Assembly (NCBI RefSeq): GCF_032926325.1
Contig: NZ_CP136709.1
Coordinates: 1,167,447 to 1,231,446 of the forward strand
Reading direction: 5' to 3'
Source: Aestuariibaculum lutulentum
GTDB lineage: Bacteria > Bacteroidota > Bacteroidia > Flavobacteriales > Flavobacteriaceae
Length of the DNA: 64,000 nt
A program made the translations under genes and the position numbers. This document shows positions 49,431 through 64,000 of the stretch, in pieces. Each line of letters starts with the position of its first letter. Position 1 is the first letter of the stretch. The notes beneath the pieces are model-generated. The model saw only the letters and a list, made by a program, of their open reading frames with translations, ran no database searches and was not told where the DNA came from.

Positions 49431-49459
49431 AAGTTCTAATAAAGTCATATAATTTACTC

Positions 49460-49513
49460 CACAAAAAAAGCCTCACATTTCTGTAAGGCTTAAATTTTGC
49501 TCCCCCTCTTGGG
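49460..49513. repeat. Distal att-like direct repeat: a partial copy of the tRNA-Asn 3' end plus its downstream terminator hairpin.
   Basis: 54/54 bp identical to 59213-59266 (CACAAAAAAAGCCTCACATTTCTGTAAGGCTTAAATTTTGCTCCCCCTCTTGGG). The upstream flank is similar but imperfect. Confidence 0.75.
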
Positions 49514-53258: not shown

Positions 53259-54077
53259 CTATTCATAAATAAACACTCCTGAATCCTGAACATCTTGGGC
53301 TAACAATTCGTAAGAAATAGGATAATTATCGGCATCGTATTGGTATACTACTTTAAAAATTTCATTTCCGTCTGAATCAGATATACTTGTTACATTATTT
53401 GGAATAAAATTTACATTTAATCGCTTCTTTGAAAAAATAGAAGGTGCGTTAGGTATATATATCCCTGTTTCAACCCCTACTTTAAAAAACGGATTAATTT
53501 TATCATCTAGAACGACATTAAAAATACTTGAGCTTGATTCACCTGCATAATATTCTGTTATGGAATATTGATGTAACTTACCATCTTGATAACTAAACAA
53601 TAGTTTTCTATGCAGTTCTCCATCTATATAAAACTTATACTCACCTAGATTCTCTCCATCATACTTATATTCACCTACTACAATACCATCCTTTCGGATA
53701 AAACTAATTTTACCATTAGAATATTCATAATCATACTTTAGACAATCGACACAATTCGCTAAATCAAATGAAAAGTCATTGTAACTTTCATAGTTACCAC
53801 CACCATGTTCTGGATTAGCAAGAATTACACTTTTCAGTATGTTCTCCTGATAAATTAACTGATGAAAATCTTTCCAAGTTTGATAATTAATAATTTTTAT
53901 TAGCTTATCATTTTCAAAGTAAAAATAAAGCTTATCATACTGATCGCTACCTTCTACTCTTAACAATGTTTTGGCTTCTACTACAACCGGATCTGGACTG
54001 CCTTCCTCTGAAGAACCAGAACTACAACCTATTAAAAACAACACCATTAAAAGTATCTTTAAAACATTTTTAATCAT
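53259..54077 (-). CDS. Hypothetical lipoprotein (island cargo).
   Basis: 272 aa with a lipoprotein signal (LFLIGCSSGSS). Tyr-rich. Confidence 0.5.
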   Translation of the reverse strand: MIKNVLKILLMVLFLIGCSSGSSEEGSPDPVVVEAKTLLRVEGSDQYDKLYFYFENDKLIKIINYQTWKDFHQLIYQENILKSVILANPEHGGGNYESYNDFSFDLANCVDCLKYDYEYSNGKISFIRKDGIVVGEYKYDGENLGEYKFYIDGELHRKLLFSYQDGKLHQYSITEYYAGESSSSIFNVVLDDKINPFFKVGVETGIYIPNAPSIFSKKRLNVNFIPNNVTSISDSDGNEIFKVVYQYDADNYPISYELLAQDVQDSGVFIYE

Positions 54078-54690
54078 ACTTTTTATTTTTAATAAAAATT
54101 TTTAAAAAACTAATATACAACACTATACCATAAAATATATACGGTTTTCCTTATTTCATAAACGCCGTTAACTCCTTCCTTTATCTTTTGTTTTTATTAA
54201 TTAAGAAGAAATACTTCGCAAACTTAAAAAACACTAATTAACATAAATGTAATACACTGATTACAAAAACATTACATATATTTACCCTCATAAAAACCCA
54301 ATACTCCCTACTATTAATAATAGTATACTTTTTGTTTAACCATTAATTATACTTATTATGTCACATCACGGAATGAATTCACTACACGGCATTAACGCCA
54401 TGTGCAAGCACGACACCTCCCACCACGGACGATTCGGAAGAATGTTTAGCTGTTTAAACCCCAACTACAACCCTCCTCTAGAACTTTCAAAACTCGGAAT
54501 AAAAGATGGTCCAATGGATGGAGGAAATGCTTACACTCTGATTAATTACAAATGAGTAACAGTTGATCAAAATGGCACAACTGAACTTCACATTGATTTT
54601 GACACGATGCACTGTGATTAAAGACTAATTGTAAATAAAAAGAAGCTAACCACTTCCCTTTAACTTTTCTATTTCAGAACTAATTTTCCT

Positions 54691-54876
54691 CTAAACCACC
54701 TTACCGTAACTATCCTGAGTAATTTTCATATCGGAATGCCCTAAAAGTTCACTTACTATTTCCATAGGCACGTTATTATAGAGCAATACAGTACTAGCAA
54801 AAGTACGTCTAGCTATATGGGTGATTAGATTCTTTTCTATTCCAACAACTCCAATCATTTCTAATAGATAAGAACC
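54691..54876 (-). pseudogene. Remnant of a tyrosine-integrase 3' end (last ~60 codons), paralogous to the integrase at 56097..57293.
   Basis: The minus strand translates to ...IGVVGIEKNLITHIARRTFASTVLLYNNVPMEIVSELLGHSDMKITQDSYGKVV*, almost identical to the C-terminus of the 56097 integrase (HMARRTFASTVLLYNNVPMEIVSELLGHSNMKITQESYGKVV). Similarity is lost upstream of 54876. Confidence 0.75.
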
Positions 54877-55113
54877 AAATGTTTAAGAAAGGGAAAGAGT
54901 CTTATTCTAACTCAACTAACTCAATTAGTTGGTAAGGATAGACAGTACCTATATAAAATTGAAAAAAATGTTGTAACGTTTTGCAGATTTGCGATGGGCG
55001 GGTTTTTCAGGACAAATATTCATATGGAGCATTACACTTCCATTAACCACAACAGTGTCATAGAAGCACGTCACCTCGATATTGCAAATGTACTGTTACC
55101 TGCTGCCATTCTT

Positions 55114-55599
55114 CTATCCTACAAAGTCTGAACGATTTGTATTTGGGTCATATTGAATTTCCAAGTCTGTTCCATTCCAAATCGCTTCACAACTTTCAAG
55201 TCGGTATGTGTCACCTTGGTTCCAACTTGCACCAATATAATCTTCAATTAAGTCTTCAATGAAAACTCTTTCACCAATTACAATATCTTTTGGTATTAAG
55301 TATGCTGCAAAAGGCGACTTGAAACTATGAGGATAATAAAATGTCCAGTCAACCACAGTTTCAAAATCATTATTATCGTCCGAATAAAAGTCGACCCGAT
55401 AGTCTCCAACAATTTCAATTTCTCCCGTTTTCTTGTTTTGAACCACAGAATACTTTGAACGAATTTTATCAGAAGGTTCAACCTTTTTTACTAATGGATT
55501 AAGTCCACTTTTAGCAGCCTTATTTATAGTGTCCTTGTCACGGGCAGTTTTTATAACACGTAATCCTTGCGTTTTTTTATTTCTGTTCAAGAATGCCAT
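55114..55599 (-). CDS. Hypothetical protein (island cargo, second gene of a two-gene cassette).
   Basis: 161 aa with no recognisable motifs. Overlaps the upstream gene by 23 nt. Confidence 0.45.
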   Translation of the reverse strand: MAFLNRNKKTQGLRVIKTARDKDTINKAAKSGLNPLVKKVEPSDKIRSKYSVVQNKKTGEIEIVGDYRVDFYSDDNNDFETVVDWTFYYPHSFKSPFAAYLIPKDIVIGERVFIEDLIEDYIGASWNQGDTYRLESCEAIWNGTDLEIQYDPNTNRSDFVG

Positions 55600-55942
55600 T
55601 TGATACTATTTTTATATTGTGTTGTTTTAAGTCAATTTTCAAACAAGTGTCGGGATTTTGTCTAACAATTTTCAGAAGGTCGTCATCTGTTAAAAATTCT
55701 GTATCAACTATTAAGTGGACGCAATTTGCACATTTTCGAAATGTAGAATTTGTAGCTTCTAATTTGTCCCAACTCATTTTATAGGGGCAATTCATTTTCT
55801 TCACAAATTCGTCTTTGTCTGTATAAATATCTTTTGTTAATGGGTCAAATTTCATTGCTCGTGTCTTTTTATGGTAACAGATAACTCCTAATATATTTAC
55901 AATTTCAGTAATAGCTTTAACACTTGAAATTCCTCTAAACAA
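55577..55942 (-). CDS. Hypothetical small Cys-containing protein (island cargo). The true start may be the internal Met at 55855.
   Basis: 121-aa ORF. The MKFDPL... version is 92 aa and has a CPY...CANC...C pattern suggesting a small zinc-binding fold. Confidence 0.4.
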   Translation of the reverse strand: MFRGISSVKAITEIVNILGVICYHKKTRAMKFDPLTKDIYTDKDEFVKKMNCPYKMSWDKLEATNSTFRKCANCVHLIVDTEFLTDDDLLKIVRQNPDTCLKIDLKQHNIKIVSNGILEQK

Positions 55943-56022
55943 ATTTTTTAAAATTGAAATTTAGTGTTTATAAAATTATAAATTTCCCTCATGTAAAAAA
56001 CGATGAAATTTGCAATAAGAAA

Positions 56023-56062
56023 CTTGATGTTGCAAAAAACTTAATTTTTCTACAACATCAAG
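56023..56062. promoter_or_regulatory. 10-bp perfect inverted repeat (CTTGATGTTG-N20-CAACATCAAG) between the integrase 3' end and the two-gene cassette.
   Basis: Read directly from the sequence. Could be an integrase terminator on the minus strand or an operator for the downstream cassette. Confidence 0.4.
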
Positions 56063-56096
56063 ATACTTAATACAGTTTAAAACTCCTTTTTACTAC

Positions 56097-57293
56097 CTAA
56101 TCACTTTGTTTTAACCTCTCAATTTCCAAACTAACTTTTTTCTGTACTACCTTTCCATAGCTTTCCTGCGTTATCTTCATATTACTATGACCAAGTAGCT
56201 CACTGACAATCTCCATAGGCACATTGTTATAAAGCAATACAGTGCTTGCAAAAGTACGTCTAGCCATATGGGTAGTTAAATTTTTTTCAACCCCTATAAT
56301 CGCTGCTATTTCCTTTAAATAGGAATTATAACGCTGATTACTTATTCTAGGAAACACTAAATCATCATCGGTATACTTACATAAAATATTTAAAGCTTTT
56401 GATAATAATGGAATTGATAAATCCTTATCTGTCTTTTCTCGTTTCATCTTAATCCACTTATTACCGTCAAACCCATTAATAATATTTGTTTGTTTAAGGT
56501 TCATTAATTCCAAATAAGGTAACCCAGTATAACAACTGAATATAAATAAATCCTTTACTAGTTTAAGTCTAGGCTGTATAAATTCATAACTCTCAAGCTG
56601 TATTAACTCTTCTGGTGATAAAAACACAACCTCCTTCTTAACCTTTTTAGCTTTATAAAGCATAAATGGATCTACCTGTAAATGTCGTTCAGCTACAGCA
56701 ACTTTAATTATCTTTTTAAAACGCTAAATCTTTTTATTGATGGTAACCTGTTTTAACTGCGTTTTATGCCCTACCTTATAGTAGTAGTCCAATTCACTTA
56801 AAAAGTTCATATCAAGTTTCTTTAGTGGATAATCCTTGGTTTTAAACTTCCATTTCACAAAAGCTTTAATATCATTTTTAACGTATTCAAACTTCTCGTA
56901 GGTTACTTGTTTTATCTCAACACCAACAAGCGTTTTTATGCGTTTTAAGTAACGTTCAAAGTATTCAATCACGTTGTATTCCTTAGCTGTTTTAACGCCT
57001 TTATACAGGCTAAAAATATCGTCTACAGTAAAAGCTTCATCTTTAACCTGAAGCAATAAAAAAGCCCTATTAATTTTAGTTTTAATAAGGCTTAGCTGTT
57101 GATTTATTTCTTTTCTATCTGGTTCAGGTGGTTTAACTACCTGTTGTTTACTATCCCAGTTATTAGCATTTACGAACTGACCTGTAGAAAATGTTTTTCT
57201 GACTTTATTATGTGTCAATCTACACATTAGTGCACAAACTCCTTTAGCATTTTTTTTCTGCTTATTTATTATAAATAGTATGTTGATTTTCAT
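56097..57293 (-). pseudogene. int: Tyrosine site-specific integrase (Bacteroidetes arm-binding + SAM-like + catalytic domains) interrupted by a single in-frame TAG at 56724-56726.
   Basis: ORFs 56724..57293 (N-terminal, MKINILFIINKQKKNAKGVCALMCRLTHNKVRKTFSTGQF...) and 56097..56663 (catalytic, ...HMARRTFAST...LLGHS...Y) are in the same frame. They are separated only by a TAG, and the bridging translation ...TINKKI*RFKKIIKVAVAERHLQVDPFMLYKAKKV... is continuous. Confidence 0.8.
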
Positions 57294-57359
57294 TTTGAAT
57301 AAGATTTTAAATTAAGGTGGAAGGTAATTGACTAAATAAAGTTATTTATCTTTAGAAGA

Positions 57360-59051
57360 TTGAACATTATGGAGTTAAATGCAATGTGTTTATTCCTATA
57401 TTATGTAGAAGTTATGCGTAAAAGTAATACACTTGAATTTATAGAAAAATCAAAAAATGTACATGGTGATAAATATGACTATTCAAAAGTTGAATATTTA
57501 GGAGCTACAGAAAAAGTCTGTATCATTTGCCCGGAACATGGACCTTTTTATCAAATTCCAAATTCTCATTCTAGAGGTAAAGGATGTTTGAAATGTGCAC
57601 GAAAAATAGCAATTAAAAAAACATATTCTAATACTGAAAAATTTATTGAAAAAGCCAGAAAAAAACATGGAAACAAATATGACTATTCAAAAGTTGAATA
57701 TATAAAAGCTAAAGAAAAAGTCAGTATTATTTGTCACAATATAGATGAAATAACAAATGAAAAACATGGAGAGTTTTTACAACAACCATCTAATCATCTA
57801 GCAGGTGGAAATTGCCCCAAATGTACTGGAAATTATATGACACAAGAACTTTTTATAAAAAGAGCAAGAGTAATTCATAACAACCAATATGACTATTCAA
57901 AAGTTGAATACAAAACTGCACGTAAAAAAGTAAATGTTATTTGTCCAGAGCATGGACTATTTTCGCAGGTACCAGATAGTCATATAAGAGGTAACGGATG
58001 TCCTAAATGCAGTAATATTTACTCACCCACAACTAGAGAGTGGATTGAAAAAGCTAAGAAAATCCATGGTAACCGATATGATTATTCCAAAACAGTCTAT
58101 AAAAAAACTCATTCTAAAGTATCCATCATTTGTAAAGAACACGGAGTTTTTTTGCAAACACCAGCAAATCACCTCAATGGTAATAACTGTCCTAAATGCA
58201 CTGGAAACTATATGGATAAAAGTTTTTTCATACAAAAAGCAAACGAAATCTATAAAGATAAAAGTGGGGCTCCATTATATGATTATTCATTAGTTGATTA
58301 CGTAGATTCCTCTACTAAAGTGACAATCATATGCCATAATAAAGACCCTGAAACAGGTAAAGAACATGGCGAATTTAATAAAACTCCTAATACCCTCTTA
58401 ACTCAGCATGGTTGTCCTAAATGTGGATTAGAATCATTGCGACAAATAAAAAGCTTAACTCGTTTAAGTAATAAGGAATTTCTTGATAAGGCATTTCCAA
58501 ACGAATATGAATATCTAAATGGTTACAAAACAGCTGCGTCTAAAATGCATATTAAATGTAAAAAATGTGGGCATAAATTTTGGCAGAAAGCTAATAATCA
58601 CTTAATGGGGGCTGGTTGTCCAGCTTGCAAAATGAGTAGGCTAGAAAGAGCAGTTTGTAATTATCTCAAAAAACATAACGTTAAATATAAAATGCAAAAA
58701 AGATTTGAATGGTTAGGGAGACAGAGTTTAGATTTTTATTTACCTGATTTCAACATGGCTATTGAATGCCAAGGTATCCAACATTTTGAACCAAAAGATT
58801 TCTTTGGTGGCGATGATGAATTAAAAAATATAGTAAAACGAGATAATAGAAAGCTTAAAAAATGTTCATCCAACAACATAGAAATGGTTTATGTTATAGA
58901 CAATGAAAAGTATCTAGAAAAAAAATATCATTTTGATATTGCAGAACCTTTTTCAGGTAATGTATGTTATAAAATTATGCATATTAATAATTTTGAGAAT
59001 TATATCAACCAATTAGTTGAGATGTCTAATTTTTTTGAAAAGAAATTATGA
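57360..59051 (+). CDS. Protein with six tandem ~60-aa Cys/His zinc-ribbon repeats fused to a C-terminal DUF559/Vsr-like PD-(D/E)xK endonuclease domain (homing-endonuclease-like).
   Basis: 563 aa. Repeat consensus F(I/L)EKA..(I/K)HGNKYDYSKVEY.....KV.IIC.EHG.F.Q.P..HL.G.GCPKC occurs six times. The C-terminus LDFYLPDFNMAIECQGIQHF matches the DUF559 (R.DFY.P...LAIE.DG..H) nuclease core. The start may be the internal Met (MRKSNTLEF). Confidence 0.7.
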   Translation: MNIMELNAMCLFLYYVEVMRKSNTLEFIEKSKNVHGDKYDYSKVEYLGATEKVCIICPEHGPFYQIPNSHSRGKGCLKCARKIAIKKTYSNTEKFIEKARKKHGNKYDYSKVEYIKAKEKVSIICHNIDEITNEKHGEFLQQPSNHLAGGNCPKCTGNYMTQELFIKRARVIHNNQYDYSKVEYKTARKKVNVICPEHGLFSQVPDSHIRGNGCPKCSNIYSPTTREWIEKAKKIHGNRYDYSKTVYKKTHSKVSIICKEHGVFLQTPANHLNGNNCPKCTGNYMDKSFFIQKANEIYKDKSGAPLYDYSLVDYVDSSTKVTIICHNKDPETGKEHGEFNKTPNTLLTQHGCPKCGLESLRQIKSLTRLSNKEFLDKAFPNEYEYLNGYKTAASKMHIKCKKCGHKFWQKANNHLMGAGCPACKMSRLERAVCNYLKKHNVKYKMQKRFEWLGRQSLDFYLPDFNMAIECQGIQHFEPKDFFGGDDELKNIVKRDNRKLKKCSSNNIEMVYVIDNEKYLEKKYHFDIAEPFSGNVCYKIMHINNFENYINQLVEMSNFFEKKL

Positions 59052-59212
59052 ATACAAAACGAAGCGATTAATAATAATTTTATTAATGGGTGTCTTTTAA
59101 AAATTAATAGGTATCCAAATGGGTGTCTTTTTTTAGTAGAAGGATAAATTAAGTTTCCTAAATTAAACACATAGAGGAATTAGCAATATCTTGTAAACCC
59201 CAAATTTTACTT

Positions 59213-59266
59213 CACAAAAAAAGCCTCACATTTCTGTAAGGCTTAAATTTTGCTCCCCCTCTTGGG
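59213..59266. repeat. Proximal att-like direct repeat overlapping the 3' 14 nt of tRNA-Asn plus its terminator hairpin.
   Basis: 54/54 bp identical to 49460-49513. Confidence 0.75.
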
Positions 59267-59326
59267 CTCGAACCAAGGACCCTTTGATTAACAGTCAAAT
59301 GCTCTAACCAACTGAGCTAAGGAGGA
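59253..59326 (-). tRNA. tRNA-Asn (anticodon GTT).
   Basis: Hand-folded on the minus strand. Acceptor TCCTCCT/AGGGGGA (one G-U), U8 A9, D-arm GCTC-AGTTGGTTA-GAGC, anticodon arm TTTGA-CTGTTAA-TCAAA, T-arm CTTGG-TTCGAGC-CCAAG, discriminator G. Followed by terminator hairpin AAGCCTTACAGAAATGTGAGGCTT + T-run. Confidence 0.85.
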
Positions 59327-59496
59327 GTGTTGCTTTCTCTATCCAGAGAGCTGCTTGTGCAAATAATATGCAAACCTTAACCGGATTAATATGCGAATAT
59401 AAAATATATTTAATCAATCATCATCCAAAATGTTTTATATTTTTAAGAATCGATTCATACTTTTTTTGAGTTTGAATTACACATATAAACAGTATC

Positions 59497-62427
59497 TCAT
59501 TCTAAATACTTTTTGAGTTTTTCTGCAATTGCTTTTGCTAAAAGAGGAGGTACTGCATTACCTATCTGTATTCCCAGAGAGGTAATATTACCAAAAAACC
59601 TATATGAATCATCAAATGATTGGATTCGAGCAGCCTCCCTTGGAGTAATAGTTCTATTCTTTAACGGATGGGTAATTCTCCCAACAGAAGGAGTGTTAAT
59701 CCTTGTAGTTATTGTGTAAGAAGGTTTTGTTCTGTCTATTCTACCATAAGCTCCACTATGAATAGATTTTGTATGATATTCCCTAGGAAGATCTTTGATT
59801 CCTTGTCCTTCTTTTATAAGTTTTAAAATTTCAATTGTTTTGGGTGTTGGTTTTGAGCTAACATGATTAAAAATATATCCATTAGAACTTCTCATATTAA
59901 TCTGGTAGTTTGAGAATCTTTCTTTGTAATTTTTTGTTGATATTTTTTCATTTCCCTCTCCAGGCTCTAATTCAGGCAAATCTCCGATTGCCTCCCATGC
60001 GCTAATAAATTTCTTAGGATTTTTTTGTGGTTCAGGAAAAAGTTCTTCTGAATTTAATCCAAGTCTATTTCCTATAAAAAATGCTCTTTTCCTTAATTGC
60101 GGAACTCCAAATTCATTTGCACTTAAAACCTTTGAAGTTACATTATACCCAAGGGCTTCAAATTTCTCTATAATCTCTCTTTTAACACTTCCGTTATTAT
60201 AATTTAAAATACCTGGTACATTTTCAATTACAAAAAATTTAGGATTTAAATCTTTAACCATCCTGTAATATTCTAAGAACAAATAATTTCTTTTATCATT
60301 AAAGAACTTAAAATCCTTTCTAATTCTATTACCCGCCATTGAAAACCCTTGGCAAGGAGGTCCTCCAATAATTACATCGCATTCGGCTGATTTTTGCTTG
60401 AATATATTTTCAATAGAGATTTCAGATCTTTTATCTTTTTCTGAACCAGAAACATTTCTTATATCGTCAACTATTAATTTAGTGTTAGGATGGTTATAGA
60501 GATATGTTTTTTCTATTCTTTTATCATACTCAACAGCTGCTACAATATCAAATCCTGCTTTTTCAAAACCATTTGAAAGCCCCCCTGCACCAGCAAACAA
60601 ATCTAAAACTGAAAACTTGTTTTCTTTTTTATCTTTTGTAAACTCCTTCCTATCCCATTTGTATGAGTTGTTTATCATTTTATAATCAAAATGGGATAAC
60701 AGAAGCTTTTCTAAATTTATAACTTTCCCTTTTTTATCTAATACAGCATAATTATTTATGATTTCAGGGATTATAAATTCATAAAGTTGAGAAGAGGTTA
60801 CAGCTCCATTCTGAATCAGAAAATCCTGAACTGAATTAACTATAAAAACCTCACCATCTTCACAAGGTTTTGATAATACTGGTTTATTACAATTTGATTT
60901 TTTGTATGTGTAAACAAAATCCCCGGTCAAAGTATTATTTTTGTTTATTCCTTGTGTTCCTGAAGATACCGCTTGCTCTTGTAAAATTGCTGATTCAAAT
61001 TTGAAGCCGGCATTAGTACATGCATCGATAATAGCCTTCCATACATTTAAATCTCTATTATGAAATGTAAAGGACAGATAAGATTCTGGCTTTAAAACTC
61101 TATACATTTCCTTAAATGCTTCACCTATTCTTTTCGAATAATCTTCATAATCCTTTTCTCGAAAATTATCAATGATTATTTCATCTTCAAATTTAGGTTT
61201 ATTTTTCAACCAGGTATTCCATAAATGACTTAAAGAAAAATAAGCTATACTTTCTCCATAAGGAGGATCTGTAAAAATATAATCAACACTTTCGGAAGAA
61301 ATTGTAGTATTTCTACTATCTAAATTTAATATTTCAGCATTTTCTCCTCCAATATTTTTAAGTTCCTTTTTCCCTTTTTTAATAGCGTTAAATCTTAGTT
61401 CAAAACAATCTATCACATTTCTCTCTGCATGAATATTAGGAACCCAAAATTTACTTATTACCCAACCTGACTTATAAATTCCCTTTTCTGGATCACCTGG
61501 TAGCATACTACTACAGTTAGCCAGCATTGAAGTAAAAATGAAATCAAACAATTCTCTAATATCTTTATTTTTAAGCTTATTAATTTCATATTTAATCTCT
61601 GCTAATATCAATAATGCTCTCTTAGAAAATAGTTCATCAATTGTTTCTTTATTATTCCTCTTTACATATTGAGGAATTTTATCCGTTGGAATTAAATTTT
61701 TTTTGGTTTTAGATAATTCATCTAATAATTTCTCACTTTTTTGAAAAATTTTCAAATCATAACCTGTAGCTTTTTTAACAAACTTACCGTGAATCTCGCA
61801 TTCTCCTTTTAGAGTGAGTAATTCTTCAAATTCCCAAACGGAACAATTAATTTTTGAAACTTTATTGCAGACAGGACAGGGAGATTCATATAAATTCCCA
61901 TATAAATTAACTACCTTACTAAAAATTTTATTATAATTATTTTGAAACTCCTCTAAATCAATTGAACTGATAGAATTTCTAACAATCGAAATACTCATAG
62001 GATTTAAATCAACTCCAATTACCCTCCTTTTAGTTTTAAGTGACTCTATAACAGTAACACCTGACCCCATAAAAGGATCTAATACCACTTGATTCTCTGA
62101 AGTGAAATATTCGATATATTGACGTACAATATTATGAGCCTTTCTCCCCCAATATTTATGCATCAAATAATGCTTAGGATGTGAATGAGCTTTTAAATTA
62201 CCCAATTTAGGCTTTCCATTATTTATTGTTGCTACGTGTATTTCAGAAGCATTGTTTTTTTGATCAATAATATAATTATCAATACTTTCTTTCAAATATC
62301 TTCTGTGTCCAGAGTTTCCAATCCTAATATACTCAATTAAACCAGAGTCTGCATATCTTTTAACTGTTGATTCTGAGACCGATAACACTTCCGCTGCCTC
62401 TTTTGTAGTAAGTTGATTTTTCTTCAT
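59497..62427 (-). CDS. Triple-domain DNA methyltransferase: N-terminal HTH, an N6-adenine/N4-cytosine MTase domain and a C5-cytosine MTase domain (Type IIS-like fused modification enzyme).
   Basis: 976 aa. HTH at the N-terminus (TTKEAAEVLSVSESTVKRYADSGLIEY). Amino-MTase motifs I (VVLDPFMGSGVTV) and IV (FTDPPYGES). C5-MTase motifs I (VLDLFAGAGGLSNGF), IV (IIGGPPCQGFSMAGN), VI (FFVIENVPG), VIII (QLRKRAFFIG) and X (GNAVPPLLA). Confidence 0.9.
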   Translation of the reverse strand: MKKNQLTTKEAAEVLSVSESTVKRYADSGLIEYIRIGNSGHRRYLKESIDNYIIDQKNNASEIHVATINNGKPKLGNLKAHSHPKHYLMHKYWGRKAHNIVRQYIEYFTSENQVVLDPFMGSGVTVIESLKTKRRVIGVDLNPMSISIVRNSISSIDLEEFQNNYNKIFSKVVNLYGNLYESPCPVCNKVSKINCSVWEFEELLTLKGECEIHGKFVKKATGYDLKIFQKSEKLLDELSKTKKNLIPTDKIPQYVKRNNKETIDELFSKRALLILAEIKYEINKLKNKDIRELFDFIFTSMLANCSSMLPGDPEKGIYKSGWVISKFWVPNIHAERNVIDCFELRFNAIKKGKKELKNIGGENAEILNLDSRNTTISSESVDYIFTDPPYGESIAYFSLSHLWNTWLKNKPKFEDEIIIDNFREKDYEDYSKRIGEAFKEMYRVLKPESYLSFTFHNRDLNVWKAIIDACTNAGFKFESAILQEQAVSSGTQGINKNNTLTGDFVYTYKKSNCNKPVLSKPCEDGEVFIVNSVQDFLIQNGAVTSSQLYEFIIPEIINNYAVLDKKGKVINLEKLLLSHFDYKMINNSYKWDRKEFTKDKKENKFSVLDLFAGAGGLSNGFEKAGFDIVAAVEYDKRIEKTYLYNHPNTKLIVDDIRNVSGSEKDKRSEISIENIFKQKSAECDVIIGGPPCQGFSMAGNRIRKDFKFFNDKRNYLFLEYYRMVKDLNPKFFVIENVPGILNYNNGSVKREIIEKFEALGYNVTSKVLSANEFGVPQLRKRAFFIGNRLGLNSEELFPEPQKNPKKFISAWEAIGDLPELEPGEGNEKISTKNYKERFSNYQINMRSSNGYIFNHVSSKPTPKTIEILKLIKEGQGIKDLPREYHTKSIHSGAYGRIDRTKPSYTITTRINTPSVGRITHPLKNRTITPREAARIQSFDDSYRFFGNITSLGIQIGNAVPPLLAKAIAEKLKKYLE

Positions 62428-62495: not shown

Positions 62496-64000
62496 ATGAC
62501 ATCAGAAGATTTTTACACCAAGTTTAAAGAAAAAGGATTTTTATATTCTAAAGAGCAAATTTATAATCTCTTTATTTCATTACAAACAAAGCCTTTTGTT
62601 ATACTTTCAGGTATTTCAGGTTCTGGTAAATCTAAAATAATAGAAATTTTTGCAGAAATATTATCAGAAAATGATAGCCAATATGAATTAGTTCCTGTAA
62701 AACCAAATTGGAGAGATAATCGTAATGTTTTCGGCTATCATAATTTGGTGAACGACACTTATTCTATTACTCCAATCTTAAAATTAATTCTAAAAGCTCA
62801 TTCAAATCCTGACAAACCTTATTTTCTTATTCTTGATGAAATGAATCTAGCAAAGGTTGAACAATATTTTGCCGATTTTTTAAGCTTAATCGAAACAAGA
62901 AGATATACACCTTCTTCTATCGGTACAATAAGTGACCTTAAAAGTGTTTTTAGTTTTCCAGCAGGCACATCTTTATCAGAGGCGATTATAATGTCATGTT
63001 TGCATATAAATCCTAATAATGTTGCTATGTCTATTGGTGATTATCGTTCAGATATATTCTCTACTCTATGGAAAGAAACATTCTTTAACGGAGACCCTGC
63101 TAATTGGACTCCACAATACAGAACAGAAATCAATCAGAAGGATTCCAGTAGTCTACCTTCAAGATTAGCTGGAAAATTATTAGAAGGCAGTGACGGTAGC
63201 TATAAACTCAAAAATTATGACACATTAGATAGTGCATCTCAAGTTGCCTTTGATTCAATAAAAACTACTTATGAAAGTATTAAAAGTCAATTTTTTGATA
63301 TAAAACAACATTCTATACAACTTCATTCAAATTCAGTTTTAAAATCAAATGATTCTTTACCAGCCTACAATTCTGGTGATGCATTTGTACAAGGTTCTTA
63401 TCCAAATTATTCCTATTACGTTCCGCAAGAGATCGAGATTCCTTTAAACTTATTCGTTGTAGGAACTGTAAATGTAGATGAAACCACACATATGTTTAGC
63501 CCTAAAGTATTAGATAGAAGTAATGTAATTGAAATGAACGAAGTGAATTTAGAAAGCATACTTAATAAACCTGAATACTCTAATAATGACAACCTGGCTG
63601 ATGATAATTATTTCTTTGCTACAGATATAGCTCCATTAAAAATAAATTTATCACATACAGCACATGTTATTGAATTTGAAAGCCAATTCAAAACTCAATT
63701 TGATGATATTTTTAAAATTAATGAAAGTTTAAAAAAATACAATAAACACTTTGGCTATAGGGTATTTAATGAAGTTTCTAATTATTGCTTAAATGCTATT
63801 AGTCAATCTTCAAGTGCTAATATTACAGTTGCTACAGATATTCAAATACTTCAAAAAATATTGCCAAAATTACATGGTTCTGCCGAACAGCTATTTAATC
63901 CACTTATGTCCATATTGTCTTTATGTCTTTCAAACGATAGTAATAATTTATCTGCACAATCGGAATATACTGAAGAGGAATTTGAAAATATTTTAAATGA
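62496..64000 (+). CDS. McrB-family AAA+ GTPase (restriction-system motor subunit), partial with the C-terminus beyond the window.
   Basis: Self-translated from an ATG at 62496. Walker A (ILSGISGSGKSKI) and the McrB signature block (YFLILDEMNLAKVEQYFADFLSLIE). No stop before the window end. Confidence 0.85.
   Translation, partial: MTSEDFYTKFKEKGFLYSKEQIYNLFISLQTKPFVILSGISGSGKSKIIEIFAEILSENDSQYELVPVKPNWRDNRNVFGYHNLVNDTYSITPILKLILKAHSNPDKPYFLILDEMNLAKVEQYFADFLSLIETRRYTPSSIGTISDLKSVFSFPAGTSLSEAIIMSCLHINPNNVAMSIGDYRSDIFSTLWKETFFNGDPANWTPQYRTEINQKDSSSLPSRLAGKLLEGSDGSYKLKNYDTLDSASQVAFDSIKTTYESIKSQFFDIKQHSIQLHSNSVLKSNDSLPAYNSGDAFVQGSYPNYSYYVPQEIEIPLNLFVVGTVNVDETTHMFSPKVLDRSNVIEMNEVNLESILNKPEYSNNDNLADDNYFFATDIAPLKINLSHTAHVIEFESQFKTQFDDIFKINESLKKYNKHFGYRVFNEVSNYCLNAISQSSSANITVATDIQILQKILPKLHGSAEQLFNPLMSILSLCLSNDSNNLSAQSEYTEEEFENILN

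Follow-up and report, generated by a model that had tools for sequence, protein, structure and literature searches.

What is encoded by the long open reading frame (ORF) that lies between a tRNA-Asn gene and a tyrosine integrase gene in Aestuariibaculum lutulentum (Flavobacteriaceae), and why would such a gene be carried there? Within the 64,000-nucleotide stretch of contig NZ_CP136709.1 analyzed here (the window), a forward-strand ORF of 563 amino acids (aa), counted from a TTG codon, spans positions 57360-59051, as the preliminary description of this DNA had recorded. We found that the ORF is intact and encodes six Cys/His zinc modules followed by a C-terminal PD-(D/E)xK nuclease. The protein belongs to a large family in which an EDxHD (Vsr-like) nuclease is combined with zinc fingers of the CapR-like/DUF4379/DUF723 kind. 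We consider it most probably, at roughly 65%, a free-standing, sequence-specific DNA endonuclease of the homing endonuclease type. The proposed biochemistry (sequence-specific nuclease action guided by zinc fingers) is on firmer ground than the proposed biology (homing rather than a domesticated role). The gene is real and intact but ordinary, and current understanding is not overturned by it; NCBI already names the protein "PDDEXK family nuclease."

The true start of the gene is likely the ATG at 57414, giving a protein of 545 aa. This codon is preferred because homology to relatives begins at ~57421 and homologues start 8 to 12 residues before the first "FIEK." Module and residue numbers are nevertheless counted from the TTG at 57360 throughout. 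The features of the gene are as follows.

57414-59051, forward strand: coding sequence of the zinc-finger-array nuclease (545 aa; the mechanical ORF runs from the TTG at 57360; homology to relatives extends from ~57421 to ~59052).
57429-57611, forward strand: zinc module 1 (aa 24-84; C57, H60, C76, C79).
57633-57839, forward strand: zinc module 2 (aa 92-160; C125, H136, C152, C155), with ~8 residues inserted between C125 and H136.
57843-58025, forward strand: zinc module 3 (aa 162-222; C195, H198, C214, C217); AlphaFold2 predicted local distance difference test (pLDDT) score, 90.
58032-58214, forward strand: zinc module 4 (aa 225-285; C258, H261, C277, C280), modeled by AlphaFold2 together with module 3.
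58227-58439, forward strand: zinc module 5 (aa 290-360; C325, H336, C352, C355), with ~8 residues likewise inserted between C325 and H336.
58470-58643, forward strand: zinc module 6 (aa 371-428; C400, C403, C420, C423), divergent and all-Cys; the best Pfam DUF4379 stretch (aa 395-425) lies here.
58632-58919, forward strand: EDxHD/Vsr/DUF559-like PD-(D/E)xK nuclease core (aa 425-520).
58920-59048, forward strand: clade-specific C-terminal extension (aa 521-563), common to the close clade and to loci L048 and L049.

The repeats, described from the outset as six units of ~60 aa, were confirmed: three of them were used to build a 61-position hidden Markov model (HMM), which recognized every one of the six (domain E-values, 3.6e-39 to 7.5e-8). 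Their consensus reads (H)G.KYDYS...IIC.EHG.F.Q.P..HL.G.GCPKC. Five of the six carry the ligand pattern Cys-x2-His...Cys-x2-Cys (with the insertion noted above in modules 2 and 5), and the sixth carries CxxC...CxxC; all 24 predicted zinc ligands are present. Among 888 repeats from 128 family proteins, the ligand positions C34, H37, C53, and C56 of the module were conserved in 100%, 97%, 100%, and 100% of cases. Pfam assigns the array to DUF4379, a "probable treble clef zinc finger" (56.4 bits against a cutoff of 24.5; E = 3.4e-15; four stretches), and close homologues carry precomputed annotations for PF05265 (DUF723) and PF14311. The Pfam class is the treble clef rather than the zinc ribbon of the preliminary description. 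Since the modules share only 33 to 69% pairwise identity as protein and 56 to 71% as DNA, they are old paralogues. Recent tandem duplication was rejected as their origin on that nucleotide identity and because each module has its own ortholog across the clade. In the same 888 repeats, the most variable positions were 41, 43, 45, 46, 49, and 51, each with more than 3 bits of entropy. These alternate between the two knuckles, in the stretch F-x-Q-x-P-x-x-H-L-x-G-x-G-C. Within the close clade, by contrast, each module retains its own identity at these positions (~1 to 1.6 bits), a pattern that fits each module reading a different subsite. By analogy with experiments on CapR and the CasPRs, which are distant relatives, the modules would bind DNA sequence specifically. 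CapR-type zinc fingers bind DNA or repress their targets in a site-specific manner, and these activities are lost upon mutation of conserved cysteines (PMC8096241, 2021; bioRxiv 10.64898/2026.02.23.707548).

The C-terminal domain had been proposed to be a nuclease of the DUF559/Vsr-fold PD-(D/E)xK type, and this assignment holds: the motif LDFYLPDFNMAIECQGIQHF is present, and an AlphaFold2 model of the domain, made together with module 6 (pLDDT, 89.9), has a Vsr/DUF559-like fold. E429, D458, E469, G472, Q474, H475, D495, and K498 are invariant in 46 diverse family sequences, whereas Q471 varies between Q and D. In an HMM alignment to the structure of I-Bth0305I (PDB 3R3P), E429, D458, H475, and D495 fall in register with E170, D196, H213, and D222 of that enzyme. 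These residues constitute the EDxHD motif and are equivalent to Vsr E25, D51, H69, and D97 (PMC3239194). E469 aligns with an extra acidic residue conserved in the I-Bth0305I family (PMC3239194). Because the catalytic residues are retained, the nuclease looks active. Purifying selection acts on the entire gene, including the part for the nuclease domain (ratio of nonsynonymous to synonymous substitution rates, 0.14 to 0.24 in seven pairwise comparisons). DUF559 (PF04480) is matched by 7 of 18 family members (best E-value, 4.6e-9), and the domain of the protein itself scores 13.2 bits, below the cutoff of 20.6 (E = 0.086), so the relation to DUF559 stands at the superfamily level. A search of NCBIfam with the protein gave no meaningful match, and a search of PDB sequences with the whole protein returned only a chance match to a ribosomal-protein zinc knuckle (E = 0.18). 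Exact look-ups of proteins P0001 and P0130 found no record for either.

The architecture, first described as unusual, is instead that of a family of thousands. The same layout is described in PMC12350094 and the zinc-finger repeats in PMC10448857. According to the former (Nucleic Acids Res 2025), proteins of this architecture form a large, distant outgroup of EDxHD/Vsr homing endonucleases; according to the latter (2023), the repeats are modular, beads-on-a-string DNA-binding heads that recombine between homing endonucleases. Our homology search recovered at least 8,000 homologues. With the nuclease domain alone, 10,693 representatives of 50%-identity clusters were obtained, in which the domain is nearly always C terminal in proteins of 250 to 750 aa; only the four top-scoring representatives (P0036, P0249, P0250, and P0251) matched through to the end of the domain. 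The same zinc-finger arrays also occur joined to nucleases of other types, among them proteins with T5orf172/GIY-YIG-like ends, with a Vsr-like end carrying "EFHGDFWHGNP," and with a classical DUF559 end carrying "ELDGxQH."

Phages hold many of these genes. A tblastn search of phage genomes found 2,705 places in 1,090 genomes, with up to 19 in one jumbo phage; the annotations on these copies include "endonuclease," "homing endonuclease," and "hypothetical." In PHROGs, the protein matched phrog_559 (9e-100) and phrog_681 (3e-71) very strongly and also phrog_9084, "homing endonuclease" (2.5e-18), and the labels on the matching families are those of endonucleases or homing endonucleases. The homologue in Salmonella phage Sasha stands free beside the large terminase gene (TerL), a classic homing endonuclease position. 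The gene in the window is likewise free-standing and not intron encoded: an Rfam scan of positions 54000-60000 (E ≤ 0.1) detected tRNA only, with no group I or II intron RNA around the nuclease gene.

We then compared the genomic contexts of close relatives. A genome scan with the full protein yielded only seven loci, only one of them from the close clade. When the window was aligned with seven loci encoding proteins of 61 to 69% identity, nucleotide homology was confined to the ORF (57421-59052), and the flanks were unrelated. Judged by where homology ends, the nuclease gene behaves as a single-gene mobile cassette. Close-clade genes reside in integrative elements and defense islands, near genes for RES toxin, AbiE, McrBC, an Mrr-helicase, type I restriction-modification, putAbiC, and tyrosine integrases. 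Two metagenomic loci, L014 and L015, are 90% identical at the nucleotide level for 3.6 kb from the start of the nuclease gene rightwards, on that side only; to the left, one carries McrBC and an MmeI fragment, and the other carries an Mrr-helicase. In this pair, the nuclease gene is the boundary of the exchange. In locus L009, whose nuclease is 68% identical, a tRNA-Asp gene precedes the integrase and then the nuclease; beyond these lie a replication module resembling those of phages or satellites (AAA_24, DUF3871, and DUF5906) and a GIY-YIG/NUMOD1 homing endonuclease gene. Its AAA_24 and DUF3871 genes are shared with L048, and integrative elements of the L009/L048 type may be satellite-like.

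In the window, the nuclease gene sits between the tRNA-Asn and integrase genes, within an island of ~9.7 kb bounded by 61-bp direct repeats. Its neighbors are those originally claimed: the integrase (56097-57293, reverse strand), the tRNA-Asn gene (59252-59326, reverse strand), and, beyond it, a fusion gene containing a C5-methylase (59497-62427, reverse strand). The features of the island are as follows.

49453-49513, no strand: left 61-bp direct repeat (one mismatch), an island boundary.
56097-57293, reverse strand: tyrosine integrase with Arm-DNA-bind_5, SAM_5, and catalytic domains; one in-frame TAG at 56724-56726.
57294-57413, no strand: 120-bp intergenic region between the divergent nuclease and integrase genes, holding a stretch, TAAAGATAAATAACTTTA, common to L049.
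59086-59130, reverse strand: direct repeats AAAGACACCCAT in three copies, of which the middle one is degenerate and the other two are exact.
59206-59266, no strand: right 61-bp direct repeat (attachment site, att), comprising the last 15 nucleotides of the tRNA gene and 46 nucleotides downstream, including a terminator hairpin.
59252-59326, reverse strand: tRNA-Asn (GTT), the integration target.

Among elements with readable context, the closest integrases are those of L048 (88% identical) and of L049 from Mariniflexile maritimum (75% identical). Both loci carry a gene for a 416-aa zinc-finger nuclease, divergent from and adjoining the integrase gene, so that the nuclease occupies the same position in all three; the gene order of L049 (tRNA-Asn, nuclease, integrase) is also that of the window. 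Nucleotide homology between the window and L049 falls into two stretches, one covering the integrase and the intergenic region and the other covering the nuclease domain, its downstream flank, and the tRNA. The zinc-finger array lies outside both: L049 has four modules against six, and these are only 42 to 45% identical. From this alignment, the array has been replaced, with the nuclease domain and its flanks left where they were.

Elements with more distant integrases of the same family (35 to 70% identical) lacked the nuclease in all 80 metagenomic loci, a search in which the positive controls worked. At 11 of these 80 (L050, L051, L053, L057, L064, L068, L069, L073, L080, L091, and L124), the tRNA-Asn gene is just 173 to 297 bp from the integrase start. 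Upstream of the integrase start, many of the L050-L129 metagenome contigs run for only 200 to 480 bp and stop at the tRNA gene or slightly past it; assemblies evidently break at this junction, so such short contigs say little about the DNA beyond the tRNA. Genes found in the tRNA-integrase gap of L087 and L114 were considered as other homing endonucleases and rejected, as they encode Cupin, DUF6090, and unknown proteins. In the nuclease-less elements, two to three element-specific direct repeats of 9 to 12 bp (e.g., GACACCCAT), probably arm-type sites, end 20 to 45 bp before the integrase ATG. The AAAGACACCCAT repeats of the window are probably the corresponding integrase arm-type sites, bound by the Arm-DNA-bind_5 domain. 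They also form a terminator-like hairpin 3' of the nuclease gene. In the window and L049, by contrast, the nuclease gene comes next after the repeats, 3' end first. Given this difference, the cassette was inserted between the repeats and the integrase start codon.

The island itself looks decayed, on account of a stop codon in the integrase and a remnant of a second one. The TAG falls at codon 190, where 16 homologues have Gln; the gene is otherwise full length (398 codons, compared with 396 to 402 aa in intact homologues), and the stop is explained either by recent inactivation of the gene or by a sequencing error. Of a second integrase, a 3'-end remnant of ~196 bp lies at 54653-54848, with 79 to 82% nucleotide identity to the L049 and L048 integrase ends, and fragments at 54894-54977 and 55882-55963 match the region of the helix-turn-helix gene in the L049 element. 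It would seem that the island combines the decayed remains of two related elements. Also encoded on it are a predicted lipoprotein of 272 aa and a PKD/CHU_C (type IX secretion) protein of 1,118 aa. Across the tRNA-Asn gene, the reverse-strand gene at 59497-62427 encodes a 976-aa fusion of helix-turn-helix, N6/N4 DNA methylase, and C5 cytosine methylase domains. Divergent from it, an ORF with an AAA_5 (McrB-like) domain (62496-64000, forward strand) runs off the window. These two genes may form a methylase plus modification-dependent restriction unit.

Taken with the PHROGs matches, the phage distribution, the fold and catalytic residues, and the cassette-like mobility, these data favor one of the two roles originally offered for the gene, a modular sequence-reading nuclease of the free-standing homing type. 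Cassette-limited homology and the presence or absence of the gene at the tRNA-Asn/integrase junction bear on homing indirectly, and we infer cleavage activity, a target site, and homing itself. According to this model, six independently folded modules of ~60 aa would each hold one zinc ion through Cys-x2-His...Cys-x2-Cys and, strung like beads, would follow a long, asymmetric DNA site; a handful of hypervariable residues located between the paired zinc knuckles would set the specificity. The array would position the C-terminal nuclease to cut nearby using E429, D458, E469, H475, and D495, with K498 probably contributing. The break would promote copying of the nuclease gene into related DNA that does not carry it. 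In this manner, the gene would persist and spread as a single-gene cassette, here within a decayed tRNA-Asn island.

Several observations weigh against a homing-type nuclease. Neither the protein nor its close clade has a known target site, cleavage activity, or homing event. Matches of the nuclease-domain profile to PDB sequences were marginal (E = 0.071 for 3R3P; E = 0.019 for 3HRL), and the link to EDxHD/DUF559 structures accordingly rests on fold and motif. A scan of viral contigs detected no relative above 54% identity, and a flavobacterial phage source could therefore not be demonstrated. The host island looks immobile, since its integrase carries a stop codon. The three nuclease-bearing elements of the tRNA-Asn locus have the most similar integrases, which could reflect one old insertion and vertical inheritance rather than recent homing. 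Lastly, the close clade resides mostly in bacterial integrative elements and defense islands, and this could indicate a domesticated role.

Such a role, in which the nuclease serves defense or conflict between elements, is the alternative that survives best, although we regard it as unlikely. Here, the array would recognize the DNA of phages or competitors, the nuclease would destroy it, and the gene would be kept for protection rather than homing. Consistent with this idea, the neighbors of close relatives often include RES toxin, AbiEi/AbiEii, McrBC, Mrr-helicase, putAbiC, and type I restriction-modification with an AAA ATPase. Mobile and defense genes share hotspots anyway, however, and no partner gene is conserved across contexts. 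PADLOC gave matches to HEAT_CxxC_PD-DExK (2.4e-5) and PDC-S69 (6.5e-5), but these were weak and limited to the last zinc knuckle and part of the nuclease (aa 401-475); no confident defense-system protein match with partner genes was detected for the nuclease. Exchange of the array at an unchanged locus is what an arms race would predict, purifying selection on the gene is compatible with a protective function, and homing endonuclease domains have been domesticated in phage-satellite conflicts (PMC10448857, PMC8096241). Against these points, the family is present in multiple copies in lytic phages beside essential genes, the classic context of homing.

A related proposal, more doubtful still, is that the cassette is a weapon of tRNA-Asn integrative elements in Flavobacteriaceae, with the array (six modules here, four in the closest same-locus relatives) as a swappable, in principle decipherable retargeting head. 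The nuclease might then cut rival elements without the cassette, or the junction of arm repeats and integrase start, and the cassette and surrounding DNA would thereby spread among elements that compete for the same attachment site.

It is very unlikely that the protein acts as a DNA-binding regulator with a dead nuclease (repressing the adjacent integrase or some other element, for instance), as do CapR and the CasPRs, which derive from homing endonuclease DNA-binding domains. The nuclease and integrase genes are divergent and share the 120-bp intergenic region, and CapR-type domains do repress in satellites and phages (PMC8096241; bioRxiv 10.64898/2026.02.23.707548). However, all nuclease catalytic residues are invariant in the 46 diverse sequences, purifying selection covers the nuclease domain too, and known regulators of the CapR/CasPR kind have lost theirs. 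A scan for sigma-70 promoters gave background-level scores only and is uninformative for a Bacteroidota genome.

The other role first suggested, a Vsr-like very-short-patch repair nickase correcting T:G mismatches that arise by deamination where the neighboring C5 cytosine methylase has methylated DNA, is very unlikely: although that methylase domain lies only ~450 bp away across the tRNA, it is outside the att-bounded island that holds the nuclease; a C5 methylase is near none of eight nuclease-derived close-relative loci (L001, L008-L010, and L012-L015); PF03852 found no match even at E ≤ 1; Gln471 stands in place of His64 of Vsr; the catalytic-core sequence shows no Cys/His zinc-site motif of the Vsr type; Vsr is a single domain of ~150 aa in contrast to the six DNA-reading modules here; and thousands of phage copies occur without dcm genes. 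Restriction-modification pairing with the adjacent methylase was rejected on the same grounds.

On the favored interpretation of a homing-type nuclease, this protein and many "hypothetical" relatives can be annotated as zinc-finger-array EDxHD/Vsr-like homing-type endonucleases rather than as repair enzymes or restriction partners. Modestly new are the fixed insertion point, at the junction of arm repeats and integrase start in tRNA-Asn elements, and the swapped DNA-reading array. As a natural experiment, the locus lends itself to studying how modular arrays establish and alter their target specificity, a matter relevant to the engineering of compact programmable nucleases.

How does the protein compare with known systems? 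The closest counterparts are the CapR-like/EDxHD-Vsr-like phage homing endonucleases (PMC12350094; PHROG 559, 681, and 9084), in which several zinc fingers of ~60 aa precede a C-terminal nuclease of ~100 aa. That family has thousands of members, many of them unannotated. The examples in PMC12350094 have three to five modules and reside in phage group II or I introns, whereas the present protein has six modules and a clade-specific C-terminal extension and is free-standing in a flavobacterial integrative island. I-Bth0305I (PDB 3R3P; PMC3239194), the EDxHD prototype, is likewise bipartite, with a DNA-binding region followed by the nuclease, and its E, D, H, and D residues align along with the extra acidic residue (E469). 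It differs in having two NUMOD/helix-turn-helix motifs and no zinc fingers and in being encoded by an intron in phage recA; sequence similarity to it is marginal (E = 0.07). DUF559 proteins (PDB 3HRL) share the core motif D...ExxG.QH, but both they and Escherichia coli Vsr (PDB 1CW0) are single-domain proteins without zinc-finger arrays. Vsr further differs in possessing a zinc site of its own, aromatic residues that intercalate, and His64, features not evident in the present protein.

With respect to DNA recognition, CapR (from a PLE satellite) and the CasPR anti-CRISPR repressors have related zinc-finger DNA-binding domains, for which cysteine-dependent site-specific binding or repression has been established by experiment. 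They are nuclease-free regulators with one or two modules, and the CapR ligands are CxxC...CxC as opposed to C-x2-H...C-x2-C in five of the six modules here. The T5orf172 (GIY-YIG-type) homing endonucleases, such as those of Vibrio phage ICP1 (PMC10448857), carry the same CapR/DUF723/DUF4379 repeats in a beads-on-a-string arrangement, and three of the homologues we recovered (P0059, P0088, and P0109) have the repeats fused to T5orf172-like ends. The catalytic fold differs, being GIY-YIG/T5orf172 in those enzymes and PD-(D/E)xK Vsr-like in ours. Both groups nonetheless have in common the shuffling of modules and domains and the location of their genes at boundaries of genetic exchange, here exemplified by L014 and L015.

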